This document shows, in pieces, positions 1 to 3,355 of a stretch of DNA of 11,429 nucleotides. The DNA is from a virus. The DNA lies in UHGV virus genome UHGV-1560016. One strand, given 5' to 3'. Every line of letters starts with the position of its first letter. The first letter of the stretch is position 1. The translations under genes were made by a program, and so were the position numbers. The notes below the pieces were generated by a model, which had not been told where the DNA came from, did not search any database, and saw only the letters and a list, made by a program, of their open reading frames with translations.

Positions 1-1
1 T

Positions 2-238
2 GATGAAAAAGAACTTGATAATGCAATTAATAAAATCATCGTAACGTCGCTCTTTTCCTGTCTCAGCGACACTCAGCAAAAACAGTTCTACGAATCGGCT
101 TTCAACATGATCGAGCGTTGTTGTTTCTGCGATGCCGACGAGTTACCTGAAAAAATCAGGAAACAGTTGGCTGATGCTCTTCGAGTGCGACTTTCTGACC
201 AATTTTCTGAAATGTACTCTCCGAATTTGGACAAATAG
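2..238 (+). CDS. Hypothetical protein, 3' part only (5' end lies outside the window); reads ...NMIERCCFCDADELPEKIRKQLADALRVRLSDQFSEMYSPNLDK*
   Basis: Hand translation of frame 2 is open from the window edge to TAG at 236-238. It is absent from the ORF track, presumably because it is 5'-truncated with no long M-initiated stretch. It lies in AT-rich DNA and overlaps the antisense ORF 156-431 by 83 nt, so only one of the two may be real. Confidence 0.3.
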   Translation, partial: DEKELDNAINKIIVTSLFSCLSDTQQKQFYESAFNMIERCCFCDADELPEKIRKQLADALRVRLSDQFSEMYSPNLDK

Positions 239-431
239 AAAAAGGCCATTTCCATTCAGGGTCTGATGGAAATACTTCAGCCTGTTCCAAAGCACGGCGT
301 AAAGAGAACACAACTCCAGCCATAATCTGATGTTTCCCATTGGTCCAGCTATCGCCGCTCTGATCTACAGGGGCGGCTATGTCGTATGACCAAACGACTT
401 CACAGTTATTGTTTAAAATCTGGACTTTCAT
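156..431 (-). CDS. Hypothetical small protein (about 91 aa from the ATG at 431; the ORF track extends it to 473)
   Basis: ATG at 431-429 (minus) is preceded by AGGTG with a 6-nt spacing. It sits downstream of the leftward promoter at 558-585. No family recognised. Overlaps the + strand partial ORF at its 3' end and contains the inverted repeat 248-273. Confidence 0.4.
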   Translation of the reverse strand: MKVQILNNNCEVVWSYDIAAPVDQSGDSWTNGKHQIMAGVVFSLRRALEQAEVFPSDPEWKWPFSICPNSESTFQKIGQKVALEEHQPTVS

Positions 432-557
432 TTCATACACCTGCTTTAACATGAGTGCCTGGTGGCACAACATGACTCAACGAATCATCCTGGACTTCAT
501 ATGCCCCAGGCGGCTACTTCGTGGGCGTCCTGCCTGTTCGTTGTTTCGCTTGGGTAC

Positions 558-585
558 ATTATGTATCTCAAAGGTACATTGTCAA
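558..585 (-). promoter_or_regulatory. Candidate sigma70 promoter directing leftward transcription (PL-like): -35 TTGACA, 16-nt spacer, -10 CATAAT, overlapped by operator-like repeats
   Basis: Minus-strand TTGACA is the complement of 580-585 and CATAAT the complement of 558-563, with a 16-nt spacer (564-579). GGTACATT is directly repeated at 553-560 and 573-580. The palindrome TACAT-T-ATGTA at 555-565 overlaps the -10. Confidence 0.45.
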
Positions 586-586
586 G

Positions 587-613
587 TATAAAAAAACCTG
601 CCGAAGCAGGTTC
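587..613 (-). terminator. Intrinsic terminator of the repressor gene
   Basis: A 7-bp stem (595-601 AACCTGC pairing 606-612 GCAGGTT) with a 4-nt loop reads on the minus strand as stem, UUCG loop, stem, then a U-run (complement of the A-run at 590-596). It lies 11 nt downstream of the repressor stop at 625-627. Confidence 0.6.
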
Positions 614-624
614 ATAAACATTGA

Positions 625-1299
625 TTAGGCTTTGATTTTGTATCTTCTTGGTTTTCCTGAGAAAATCACTGTGCCAATTATAGAGCAATTACCGTTGATC
701 TTAATGTAAGGCTCAGGCCAGTTTGGGTTTAACGCTTTGAGATAACGCTGTGTCCCATCTTCTATCAACCTTTTGAAGGTGGTTTCGCCTGTATCGTGCA
801 TCAATGCAATAACGTCGTCACCGTGGCAGGCAGGTACTTCAGGATCGACAAAAATCATGTCTCCCGGGCGGTACTCATCAATCATTGAATCACCTATCAC
901 CCGCAAGATATAAGTCATTTCCCCACAGGGTACAGGGCAGGGATACGTTTCTGCTGTGCTCAAATCAACCTCAGAATATCCAACTTCTTTCCATGCTCCG
1001 GCCTGTACCCATGATATGACAGGGACTAATGTGATTTGTTTATTAGTGATTGAAACATCAGGTTTTTTTGTGATGTTCGTTGTCTGGTGTTCTTGATCGA
1101 GCCATCCGACAGGCAGGTCGAAACATTTTTCGATGTGTCGTGCCATGCTGTCACCGATATTTTTAGTAGCACCATCCCCCATAAACCTGCTGGTCTGGGT
1201 TGGCTCGCGATCAATCATAGTGGCAAAGGAAGAATTCCCGCCAACACCATCTCTCAGTTTTCTGGCGTTAGACCGCCGGATGTCATGGATTGTTTTCAT
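625..1299 (-). CDS. Phage CI/LexA-like repressor with C-terminal S24 autopeptidase domain (224 aa)
   Basis: The C-terminal half carries the S24 signature GDSM (IGDSMIDEY, nucleophile Ser) and a downstream KRL (TFKRLIEDG, general-base Lys), with LexA-like spacing. The N-terminal ~70 aa are basic and typical of a DNA-binding domain. It is divergent from a Cro-like gene and followed by its own terminator. The 224-aa size matches what I recall for e14 CohE (unverified). Confidence 0.88.
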   Translation of the reverse strand: MKTIHDIRRSNARKLRDGVGGNSSFATMIDREPTQTSRFMGDGATKNIGDSMARHIEKCFDLPVGWLDQEHQTTNITKKPDVSITNKQITLVPVISWVQAGAWKEVGYSEVDLSTAETYPCPVPCGEMTYILRVIGDSMIDEYRPGDMIFVDPEVPACHGDDVIALMHDTGETTFKRLIEDGTQRYLKALNPNWPEPYIKINGNCSIIGTVIFSGKPRRYKIKA

Positions 1300-1315
1300 A
1301 ACGAAATTAAAACCC

Positions 1316-1334
1316 TTGTACCGTTAAGGTACAA
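1316..1334. promoter_or_regulatory. Operator candidate: perfect 7-5-7 inverted repeat TTGTACC-GTTAA-GGTACAA
   Basis: The arms 1316-1322 and 1328-1334 are exact reverse complements. It lies 17 bp upstream of the repressor start codon in the divergent intergenic region. Confidence 0.5.
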
Positions 1335-1339
1335 GTATC

Positions 1340-1367
1340 TTGAAGGTTCATTTCAATCATGTAATAT
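1340..1367 (+). promoter_or_regulatory. Candidate rightward promoter (PR-like) for the Cro-like gene: -35 TTGAAG, 16-nt spacer, -10 TAATAT
   Basis: TTGAAG at 1340-1345 and TAATAT at 1362-1367 with a 16-nt spacer. GGAGG RBS at 1375-1379 and ATG at 1390. Confidence 0.45.
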
Positions 1368-1387
1368 GTACACCGGAGGTACATATT
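1363..1387. promoter_or_regulatory. Operator candidate: 9-7-9 perfect inverted repeat AATATGTAC-ACCGGAG-GTACATATT overlapping the -10 and RBS of the Cro-like gene
   Basis: The arms 1363-1371 and 1379-1387 are exact reverse complements (checked base by base). It shares the GTACA core with the repeats at 553-580 and 1316-1334. Confidence 0.55.
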
Positions 1388-1389
1388 GT

Positions 1390-1704
1390 ATGAAAGCGTA
1401 TTGGGACTCTTTAACCAAAGAACAGCAGGGCGAGTTGGCCGGAAAAGTTGGCTCAACACCTGGCTACTTACGGCTGGTTTTCAATGGCTATAAAAAAGCC
1501 AGTTTTGTGCTGGCTAAAAAACTTGAGCAATGCACGTCAGGTGCAATTACGAAATCTGACTTAAGACCGGATACCCGCCAGCAGGATGATCTGAACAGTC
1601 TGGATGAACTGCAAACGCTGGCGATTGATGTTGATTATCTCGAGCCCGGTAACGGGCCTGACGGCGATATCGAACATCACACCGAAATAACCCTTCCTTC
1701 CTGA
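1390..1704 (+). CDS. Cro/YdaS-like helix-turn-helix regulator (104 aa) with an acidic C-terminal extension
   Basis: ATG at 1390 with GGAGG 10 nt upstream. The N-terminal segment LAGKVGSTPGYLRLVFNGYKKASFVLAKKLEQCTSG resembles phage Cro/YdaS-type HTH proteins. It is divergent from the repressor. The longer track ORF 1087-1704 overlaps the repressor antisense and is not the true start. Confidence 0.7.
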   Translation: MKAYWDSLTKEQQGELAGKVGSTPGYLRLVFNGYKKASFVLAKKLEQCTSGAITKSDLRPDTRQQDDLNSLDELQTLAIDVDYLEPGNGPDGDIEHHTEITLPS

Positions 1705-1875
1705 GGATCCTCATGTTTGTCAAACCTGTTAAAGGGCGTTCCTGACCCTGCCCGCGGCGACCTTTTGCCCGCCGAAGGGCGAAATGTTGACGAGAACAAC
1801 TACTGGCTGCGCCGTGAAGTAGCGGGTGATATCCGGCGCGTGAATAAAAAGGTGAATACCGATGACGAGCTTTAA
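1705..1875 (+). other. Start-less open frame (56 codons) ending at a TAA that overlaps the sheath start; possible 3' remnant of the ancestral gene preceding the sheath gene
   Basis: Frame 1 is open from just after the Cro-like TGA (1702-1704) to TAA at 1873-1875 with no ATG. The only candidate start is TTG at 1717 with no RBS. Its stop overlaps the sheath ATG (1862) in the manner of translationally coupled phage genes. Confidence 0.25.
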
Positions 1876-3355
1876 CACCATTCCGTCGAATACGCTGGTT
1901 CCGCTGTTTTATGCGGAAATGGATAATCAGGCGGCGAATACTGCACAGGACAGCGGAGCATCGCTGCTGATTGGTCATGCCAATAACGGTGCAGAGATTG
2001 TTGCCAACAGTCTGGTACTGATGCCGTCGGCAGACTATGCACGCCAGATTTGTGGTGCGGGAAGTCAGCTGGCGCGTATGGTCGAGGCTTATCGCCAGAC
2101 CGACCCGTTTGGCGAGCTATATGTGATTGCCGTTCCTGAATCCACGGGCGCGGCGGCAACGGTTACGCTGACGGTGACCGGCGCGGCAACCGAAACCGGC
2201 ACGGTGAATGTTTATGTGGGACGTACCCGCGTGCAGGCACCGGTGACCAACGGCGATAACGTTGCGACGATTGCCAGCAGTATCCAGGATGCCATCAATG
2301 CCGTTCCGACCCTGCCGTTTACTGCCTCATCTTCGGCAGGCGTGGTCACACTGACCGCGCGTCATAAGGGGCTTTGCGGGAATGAAATTCCTGTCAGCCT
2401 CAATTACTACGGCTTTGGTGGGGGCGAAGTGCTGCCAGCGGGCGTACAGATTGCCGTGGCGACGGGTACCGCCGGAACGGGCGCTCCGGTTCTCACCGGC
2501 GCGGTGGCTGCAATGGCGGATGAGCCGTTTGATTATATCGGCCTGCCGTTCAACGACACAGCCTCCGTTAACACGCTGGTGACCGAGATGAACGATACCA
2601 GCGGTCGCTGGAGCTATGCGCGTCAGCTGTATGGTCATGTGTATACGGCAAAGATCGGCACGCTGTCAGAACTGGTGACCGCAGGTGACCAGTTTAACCA
2701 GCAGCACATTACCCTGGCGGGATACGAAAAAGAGACCCAGACGCCTGCCGACGAGCTGGCGGCAAGCCGTACCGCCCGCGCAGCGGTGTTTATCCGCAAC
2801 GATCCGGCACGTCCCACGCAGACCGGTGAGCTGGTGGGTATGCTGCCTGCGCCGAAGGGGAAACGGTTCACGATGACCGAACAACAGACCCTGCTGTCTC
2901 ATGGCGTGGCAACGGCGTGTGTCGAAAGCGGGGTGCTGCGCATTCAGCGTGATGTCACCACGTACAGGAAAAACGCTTACGGTGTTGCGGATAACAGCTA
3001 CCTCGACAGCGAGACGCTGCATACCAGCGCGTATGTGCTGCGCAAACTGAAATCCGTCATTACCAGTAAGTACGGGCGTCACAAGCTTGCCAGCGACGGT
3101 ACCCGCTTTGGTCCCGGTCAGGCGATTGTCACACCGGCGGTGATCAAAGGGGAACTGCTGGCAACCTACCGTCAGCTTGAGCGTGCGGGGATCGTGGAAA
3201 ACTACGAACTGTTTAAGCAGTACCTGGTTGTGGAGCGTGATGCCAGCGATCCGAACCGCCTGAACACGCTGTTCCCGCCTGACTATGTTAACCAGTTGCG
3301 TGTCTTTGCCGTGGTTAACCAGTTCCGTCTTCAGTATTCAGAGGAGTCTGCATAA
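1862..3355 (+). CDS. Contractile tail sheath protein (Mu gpL-like, 497 aa)
   Basis: A 497-aa ORF immediately upstream of, and coupled to, a 118-aa tube gene (TAATG overlap at 3353-3357), followed by chaperone and tape measure genes. This is the size and order of myovirus sheath genes. GAGGAG RBS for the next gene is embedded in its 3' end. Confidence 0.85.
   Translation: MTSFNTIPSNTLVPLFYAEMDNQAANTAQDSGASLLIGHANNGAEIVANSLVLMPSADYARQICGAGSQLARMVEAYRQTDPFGELYVIAVPESTGAAATVTLTVTGAATETGTVNVYVGRTRVQAPVTNGDNVATIASSIQDAINAVPTLPFTASSSAGVVTLTARHKGLCGNEIPVSLNYYGFGGGEVLPAGVQIAVATGTAGTGAPVLTGAVAAMADEPFDYIGLPFNDTASVNTLVTEMNDTSGRWSYARQLYGHVYTAKIGTLSELVTAGDQFNQQHITLAGYEKETQTPADELAASRTARAAVFIRNDPARPTQTGELVGMLPAPKGKRFTMTEQQTLLSHGVATACVESGVLRIQRDVTTYRKNAYGVADNSYLDSETLHTSAYVLRKLKSVITSKYGRHKLASDGTRFGPGQAIVTPAVIKGELLATYRQLERAGIVENYELFKQYLVVERDASDPNRLNTLFPPDYVNQLRVFAVVNQFRLQYSEESA

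Follow-up and report, generated by a model that had tools for sequence, protein, structure and literature searches.

A probable repressor-controlled early-left promoter and operator in an e14/SfV-type prophage immunity region, with a conserved structured leader RNA at the start of its predicted transcript

The DNA just past the repressor gene terminator of virus genome UHGV-1560016 raises the question of how transcription that leaves the immunity region to the left is started, and whether the repressor governs it. We examined this within a stretch of 11,429 nt (referred to hereafter as the window), for which a preliminary description had proposed an operator-controlled promoter resembling lambda PL. 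Judging from sequence comparison, we consider it very probable that a lambdoid prophage of the e14/SfV type has its early-left promoter and operator (PL/OL) at bases 542–585, and that this promoter is repressor-controlled. Positions 1–1573 of the window share 98–100% identity with the immunity region of SfV and of SfV/e14-like E. coli prophages, and similarity to positions 1–1900 occurs in 2,424 of 5,426 complete E. coli genomes, with K-12 e14, SfV and Stx2c- and Cdt-converting phages among the carriers of a similar module. The SfV record annotates a terminator (window ~588–612), orf33 (156–452) and a "putative operator region" (1316–1384) that coincides with the cI–cro operators of the window; it annotates no PL, OL or leftward promoter. 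Our literature search returned no footprint and no mapped PL start, the original SfV and e14 papers, which may describe the site, lying outside that search.

The promoter hexamers are as the preliminary description gave them, TTGACA and CATAAT on the minus strand (read at 585–580 and 563–558), with a 16-nt spacer that is one below the optimum. This site scores 11 of 12 against the sigma-70 consensus and is the best of seven promoter-like sites returned by a promoter scan of the 11.4-kb window; by our own arithmetic, ~0.15 sites scoring at least 11/12 are expected by chance per window. The hexamers by themselves are only mildly unusual, and the argument rests on context. On the upstream side, the promoter was correctly placed just past the repressor terminator: a scan calls this hairpin on the minus strand (613–594), and its T-run (593–587) directly abuts the −35 hexamer. 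The terminator is annotated in the SfV and Ayreon records, and in Edwardsiella phage EPP-1 its stem is kept via compensatory changes. On the downstream side, what we predict to be a sigma-70-type promoter downstream of the repressor gene, pointing away from it, is followed by a co-directional orf33-like gene. The GenBank record of phage Ayreon annotates a promoter exactly at the equivalent of 558–585.

Table 1. Coordinates of predicted and observed features around the repressor gene (window positions)
Feature	Position	Strand	Basis or remark
orf33-like gene, first on leftward transcript	156..431	-	SfV orf33 homologue, phrog_3195; alternative starts 452, 473
Conserved structured leader RNA, ~66–75 nt	478..543	-	alignments, pair counts, mutual information, covariance model
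Leader RNA P1 (closing helix)	543–537 with 484–478	-	begins ~+8 from predicted start
Leader RNA P2, putative, 3 bp	534–532 with 514–512	-	no covariation
Leader RNA P3 (hairpin)	510–506 with 493–489	-	covariation
OL2, probable weaker operator, 2 mismatches	542..558	.	spans −10 edge, start site, +1 to +10
Predicted transcription start	550..551	-	7–8 nt past −10; inferred from promoter geometry; K-12 equivalent ~1,202,184–1,202,185, minus strand of NC_000913.3
−10 hexamer CATAAT of PL	558..563	-	read and scan; invariant in 6-sequence alignment
OL1, TGTAT-CTCAAAG-GTACA, 1 mismatch	562..578	.	fills −35/−10 spacer; motif search
−35 hexamer TTGACA of PL	580..585	-	read and scan; invariant in 6 phages/prophages
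Intrinsic terminator of repressor gene	594..613	-	scan: 8-bp stem and T-run
cI-like repressor gene, 224 aa	625..1299	-	e14 YmfK/CohE and SfV cI type; LexA-like S24 autoprotease
cI-side operator TGTAC-CGTTAAG-GTACA	1317..1333	.	18–34 bp upstream of cI ATG
Likely PR −10 TAATAT	1363–1368		own reading; PR hexamers below scan threshold
cro-side operator TGTAC-ACCGGAG-GTACA	1367..1383	.	overlaps likely PR −10 and cro ribosome-binding site
Chimeric cro' (cro/ymfT homologue)	1390..1704	+	homology breakpoints; PHROG matches split between protein halves

The promoter is overlapped by repeats that the preliminary description had read as a direct-repeat operator element, two copies of GGTACATT 20 bp apart (553–560 and 573–580). 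Both copies are real, but the unit of the operator is an inverted repeat, TGTAC-N7-GTACA, rather than the direct repeat; the copies are perfect half-sites of two adjacent operators, OL1 and OL2, whose centres are 20 bp apart and each of which opens with the perfect extended half-site AATGTACC on the transcribed strand. The GTACA core that had been said to be common with the operators at 1316–1387 is borne out, since TGTAC-N7-GTACA is present at PL and at both cI–cro sites. With at most one mismatch allowed, this motif has three sites in the window (562–578, 1317–1333 and 1367–1383) against 0.15 expected, a count reached by none of 200 shuffles, and allowing two mismatches adds a fourth (542–558). 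The palindrome TACAT-T-ATGTA (555–565) is also there, but is not a unit of its own: it forms where the right half of OL1 abuts the left half of OL2, and we rejected it as an operator on the grounds that it is this junction of two N7-type sites and that OR has no such palindrome. Because OL2 carries two mismatches in the window (both in the right half) and three in Hafnia phage yong2, a second operator at PL can be called secure only in EPP-1, where OL1 is perfect and the OL2 equivalent, 20 bp away, has one mismatch. At the other end of the repressor gene, the operator at 1317–1333 is placed over the cI promoter by the finding that the K-12 ymfK transcript has no leader, like the cI transcript made from lambda PRM (PMC4681348). 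As a separate observation, the PL region of HK022 (L004 28320–28370) has GTAC-containing repeats (TGTACTATTGGTAC and AAGTACAT) around its promoter, a hint that a phage whose repressor is different may have a related operator half-site.

The layout that had been described for the window (repressor gene, terminator, then an operator-overlapped promoter pointing away) is conserved in K-12 e14, SfV, Ayreon, yong2 and EPP-1. The repressors of yong2 and EPP-1 are 79 and 74% identical to that of the window and DNA identity at the end of the repressor gene is 73–82%, and the order of elements in these two phages is the same as in the window: cI stop, terminator hairpin, T-run, TTGACA, AATGTAC-N7-(G/A)TACA, CATAAT, GTAC. 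All hexamer bases and half-sites are kept at 73% overall DNA identity while spacers and flanks drift, and the combination of conserved half-sites with variable N7 spacers (CTTTGAG, CATTGAG, CCATGCG) is the signature of a protein-binding site. OL1 has the same position in K-12 e14, yong2 and EPP-1, and the GTAC right after the −10 is kept in five of six aligned sequences, Ayreon having GTAT. The two OR sites of EPP-1 are spaced 50 bp apart, as in the window, and both K-12 e14 (10 kb searched) and yong2 give the same three-site operator picture; the e14 promoter and operators, between ymfK and ymfJ, are identical to those of the window. Homology to phages of the same immunity (Ayreon, cdtI, 2H10 and Stx2c phages) starts at ~528–542, from which it follows that promoter and operator move with the repressor gene as one immunity module.

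The repressor gene itself encodes a protein with a Pfam Peptidase_S24 match (E = 1.5e-26), a PHROG match to transcriptional repressor and the RefSeq annotation ymfK, LexA family protein. Its autocleavage motifs (an Ala100-Gly101 cleavage site, Ser138 in GDSM and Lys176 in FKRL) are invariant among the aligned repressors. The annotated start of the EPP-1 repressor (L132 1378–2112) is probably 22 codons too far upstream, since the orthologues begin MKT and the extension would put an operator (2065–2081) inside the coding sequence.

Beyond the predicted start, the alignments, pair counts and covariance model identify a structured RNA. The core, AGGCAGGACGCCCACGAAGUAGCCG, is invariant or nearly so, spanning the 25 nt between P1 and P3 and holding the putative P2; conservation extends to the P3 loop (GGCAUAYGAA) and to a 3′ AUGA. 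Almost no gaps are needed to align the 155 distinct variants, and the column pairs with the highest mutual information among them are all Watson–Crick partners, with 3–4 pair types and 97–99% pairing. Compensatory changes are seen at five of five P3 pairs and six of seven P1 pairs in a 51-sequence alignment, for which the covariation score is 0.50, compared with 0.13 in shuffles (0 of 500 reach the observed value) and at most 0.11 when partners are slid. A covariance model built on this element matches the window at 469–550 on the minus strand with 93.5 bits, the window, SfV and K-12 e14 together ranging over 75–94 bits. We orient the RNA by the promoter upstream and the co-directional genes downstream; G-U and A-C counts in its pairs are about equal in small numbers and are not decisive. 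Sequences past P1 differ among phages, and the element thus has no conserved expression platform.

This RNA is widespread and strongly conserved beyond the immunity type of the window. Window positions 479–545 are conserved in phages whose immunity regions are unrelated, where they invariably fall in unannotated DNA, the carriers including SfII, ST64B, SEN34, SPN3UB, mEp237, mEp460, ZF40, YeP1 and phiNP as well as Klebsiella and Pantoea phages and T5-like Providencia phages (loci L133 6103–6185 in K-12 e14, between ymfK and ymfJ; L001 3469–3550 in SfV; L005–L009; and ~180 others). The exact 15-mer core GCCCACGAAGTAGCC is found in at least 120 IMG/VR contigs, and GTDB species-representative genomes have 80 loci with a 24-nt version of the core, almost all of them in Enterobacterales, with several copies in some Xenorhabdus. 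In ST64B, SPN3UB and ZF40 the RNA lies 100–170 nt past the cI stop, and early-left genes in the same orientation come after it (recE for SPN3UB, an exonuclease for ZF40); in mEp237 it is followed directly by kil and an exonuclease gene. At ~60% of more than 100 loci of other immunity types, the core is preceded by a promoter-like site whose hexamers vary and whose −10 ends 28–39 nt 5′ of the core; the corresponding distance in the window is 31 nt, and the sharing of this distance across loci lends independent support to a transcription start at PL.

Observations on several individual loci are recorded here. Single Xenorhabdus genomes carry up to four copies of the RNA core (e.g., L149, L150, L181 and L185 of Xenorhabdus sp. 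TCT-1), presumably one per prophage. In T5-like virulent phages (Providencia vB_PreS_PR1, L009 1501–1550, and PSTCR5) the motif sits in an intergenic region before an operon whose last gene is the A2 DNA-transfer gene, and in PR1 it is within the terminal repeat, with a boxA-like CGCTCTTTAAAAA directly after it. The PL leader of yong2 (L131 1118–1191) has a tRNA-Gly(CCC) gene where other phages have the structured RNA. Ayreon (L003 ~2047–2060, minus strand) has an identical PL/OL without the RNA motif, followed by a ~550-nt untranslated leader with a boxA-like CGCTCTTTTTACAA, which suggests that a different antitermination module may fill the same slot.

One alternative is that PL chiefly makes a stand-alone structured sRNA of ~70 nt, with orf33 and the later genes incidental. 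The element begins within ~10 nt of the predicted start and is far more conserved than anything downstream, as this alternative would have it; however, no terminator follows the element (the hairpin at 469–456 is without a U-run, and from 478 to 156 the scans find no terminator on the minus strand), and in annotated phages co-directional early genes (kil, recE, exo) always come after it. We regard an sRNA as the main product of PL as unlikely, and such a reading would still leave PL repressor-controlled.

The main rival to the PL/OL reading is of a different kind, namely that PL, orf33 and a downstream terminator form a moron, an autonomous and constitutive cassette free of repressor control. 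SfV does annotate terminators on either side of orf33, a gene for which no function is known, and the gene that follows the promoter varies among relatives (ymfJ in K-12, others elsewhere). Against this, the spacer of the promoter holds an operator of OR sequence that is conserved with the repressor in diverged phages, and the promoter moves with the immunity module, not with orf33. Expression data from K-12, which concern ymfJ, a different downstream gene from the orf33 of the window, behind an identical promoter, also speak against a constitutive cassette, as this gene is off until late in the SOS response (PMC11002266). After DNA damage, ymfJ, intE and ymfM rise late, from ~50 min, with ymfJ reaching a log2 change of ~4.8 late in the response, and the study authors attribute this late e14 induction to the cI-like repressor (PMC11002266). 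In addition, intE, xisE, ymfH and ymfJ fall in one iModulon with rightward e14 genes (the YmfT iModulon; PMC12132413). Taken with these observations, a moron promoter seems to us quite improbable.

Weaker still, and in our estimate very improbable, is that the hexamers and GTAC repeats are a chance resemblance (the ~0.15 matches expected per window notwithstanding, drift of spacers and flanks has left hexamers and half-sites fully conserved) or that LexA controls the leftward genes directly, as older lists that counted ymfJ and intE as LexA-regulated would imply (noted in PMC11002266), given that no LexA box (CTGT-N8-ACAG) could be read within 540–600 and that e14 genes come on ~40 min later than genuine LexA targets and depart from the relation with LexA heterology index (PMC11002266).

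The lambda-PL-like reading of the preliminary description is thus supported by the conserved layout, by the Ayreon promoter annotation and by the behaviour of K-12 ymfJ behind an identical promoter (PMC11002266, PMC12132413). For this repressor-controlled PL, we propose the following means of regulation. In the lysogen, dimers of the cI-like repressor would bind OL1, between the −35 and −10 hexamers, and probably the weaker OL2 too, over the −10 edge and start site; as the centres of OL1 and OL2 are two helical turns apart, binding to the two is perhaps cooperative. Repressor on these operators would exclude RNA polymerase from PL, while the cI terminator would keep transcription from the cI promoter out of the left operon. 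Upon DNA damage, RecA-stimulated autocleavage of the LexA-like repressor would free PL and PR together, and polymerase would start near 551/550 and travel leftward via the folded leader RNA (543–478) and the orf33-like gene (431–156) and beyond. We infer repressor binding, the start site, cooperativity and a function of the leader RNA, with binding predicted indirectly, from operators that are conserved alongside orthologous repressors.

The PL/OL assignment completes the regulatory map for an immunity module that is very common, and this map would account for the late-SOS behaviour of the leftward e14 genes; it also offers a candidate operator consensus for YmfK/CohE-type repressors, WWTGTAC-N7-GTACAWW. 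The arrangement is an ordinary lambda-like one, whose promoter was already annotated in one relative (Ayreon).

To the right of OR, the window prophage has none of the DNA that in K-12 e14 and SfV separates codon ~61 of cro from the tail-terminator gene. The match to E. coli and SfV stops at 1573, and the match to tail DNA runs from 1556. In cro', Cro residues ~1–61 continue in frame into the last ~44 residues of a tail-terminator protein. Judging from these breakpoints, cro' is the product of a deletion by which the genes for replication, lysis and head were lost. The deletion reaches from codon ~61 of cro to the 3′ end of the tail-terminator gene (~19 kb in E. coli D1), with the junction (window 1556–1704 region) at an imperfect microhomology, CTGACTTAAGACCGGATA versus CTGACTGAAGAC--GATA. 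Neither the 5,426 complete E. coli genomes nor the GTDB species representatives contain this cro–tail junction. The chimeric gene lies directly 5′ of Mu-like tail genes (DUF2635, sheath), and the deletion leaves a repressor/PR-controlled tail-gene block reminiscent of tailocin loci.

On the leftward side, the orf33-like gene has no Pfam match and belongs to a PHROG family without known function. An N-like match was found neither for the first post-PL gene of the window (Pfam and PHROGs) nor for those of K-12 e14, ST64B, SPN3UB, ZF40 and Ayreon (PHROGs only), the PHROG matches of first genes being to function-unknown families or none, and a novel N analogue could escape PHROGs. The only known mechanism by which early transcripts of N-less lambdoid phages pass terminators is that of HK022 and HK639, put RNA. 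This RNA suppresses terminators in cis and depends on the zinc-binding domain of the RNA polymerase β′ subunit. The leader RNA resembles put in its position, right at the 5′ end of the PL transcript (HK022 putL begins at +1 to +3; PMC9378689), in its similar size (~65–75 nt) and high degree of structure, and in lying beside first downstream genes that, where examined, have no N-like match; there is one copy per phage, as annotated for HK639. The architectures differ, put being two side-by-side stem-loops with a triplex and the leader RNA two hairpins closed by an outer helix, and the −10-like AACCAU of putL is missing. Also absent from the leader RNA are the two adjacent stem-loops and the conserved GACGAACGGCGCGUC...AAACCAUGCGUCGG core of put. 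Our covariance model (R1) has no match at putL or putR in HK022 or HK639, and blastn with the leader element did not retrieve these phages, whose put sequences were also compared by eye. With no model match and a different architecture, we rejected the assignment of the leader RNA to put RNA; it is not a detectable relative.

Nor does the leader RNA correspond to a curated family: Rfam 15 gives no minus-strand match over 478–543, even at E up to 10, and a scan of window 1–2000 gives sub-threshold matches only, mostly on the plus strand and driven by the terminator hairpin. As a control, HK022 putL is also without an Rfam match, Rfam having no put family, so the negative is of limited weight and says only that the motif is not curated. 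A full-text literature search for the RNA core sequence returned only unrelated primer matches.

A put-like role would call for terminators to be passed, and we therefore counted them, at 124 non-redundant loci, in the 2.5 kb of same-strand sequence that follows the RNA, a count confined to intrinsic terminators, Rho-dependent ones not being predictable. Under loose criteria at least one is found at 80 of the 124 loci, and since the antisense control is higher this figure is uninformative; under strict criteria strong terminators are found at 11 of 124, versus 2.7 in shuffles. Strong terminators are thus enriched but uncommon, which lowers the probability of antitermination and keeps other functions (5′ stabiliser, ribozyme, sensor or protein-binding site) as candidates. 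A put-like antiterminator or anti-pausing role is the most attractive function for the leader RNA, albeit one we put forward as doubtful, and we are equally tentative in suggesting that the element may represent a previously undescribed class of cis-acting, polymerase-modifying RNA, an analogue of put unrelated to it in sequence. If this were so, it would provide for processive antitermination or anti-pausing of the early operons of the N-less SfV, SfII, SfIV, ST64B, SPN3UB (a recE-carrying Salmonella phage), ZF40 and e14, and even for the T5-like Providencia phages, with the repressor-controlled PL as the switch that launches the RNA. Sitting at the put position, yet unrelated to put and far more widespread, the leader RNA is an obvious candidate for a second means of passing terminators without N. 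It is more consequential than PL/OL, and the copy carried by E. coli K-12 allows its function to be tested directly there.

The closest known systems are K-12 e14 and SfV, which in the promoter region are essentially the same DNA as the window, with identical promoter and operators; K-12 e14 has ymfJ where the window has orf33, and its copy of the leader RNA has diverged (74.9 versus 93.5 bits). The likeness to lambda PL/OL lies in a strong sigma-70 promoter at the 3′ side of the repressor gene, pointing away from it and overlapped by operators of the OR type; in a repressor that is a LexA-like autoprotease, by virtue of which PL and PR would be released together by the SOS response; and in the cI mRNA, leaderless in K-12 e14 as from lambda PRM (PMC4681348). 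Lambda has three operators at PL and three adjacent sites at OR; the window differs in having two at PL, a strong one and a weak one with centres 20 bp apart, two at OR that are spaced by 50 bp, and an operator of the form TGTAC-N7-GTACA. Its cI terminator directly abuts the −35 hexamer, with no rexAB region, and in place of an N gene and nutL (boxA/boxB) a different, larger structured RNA occupies that position.
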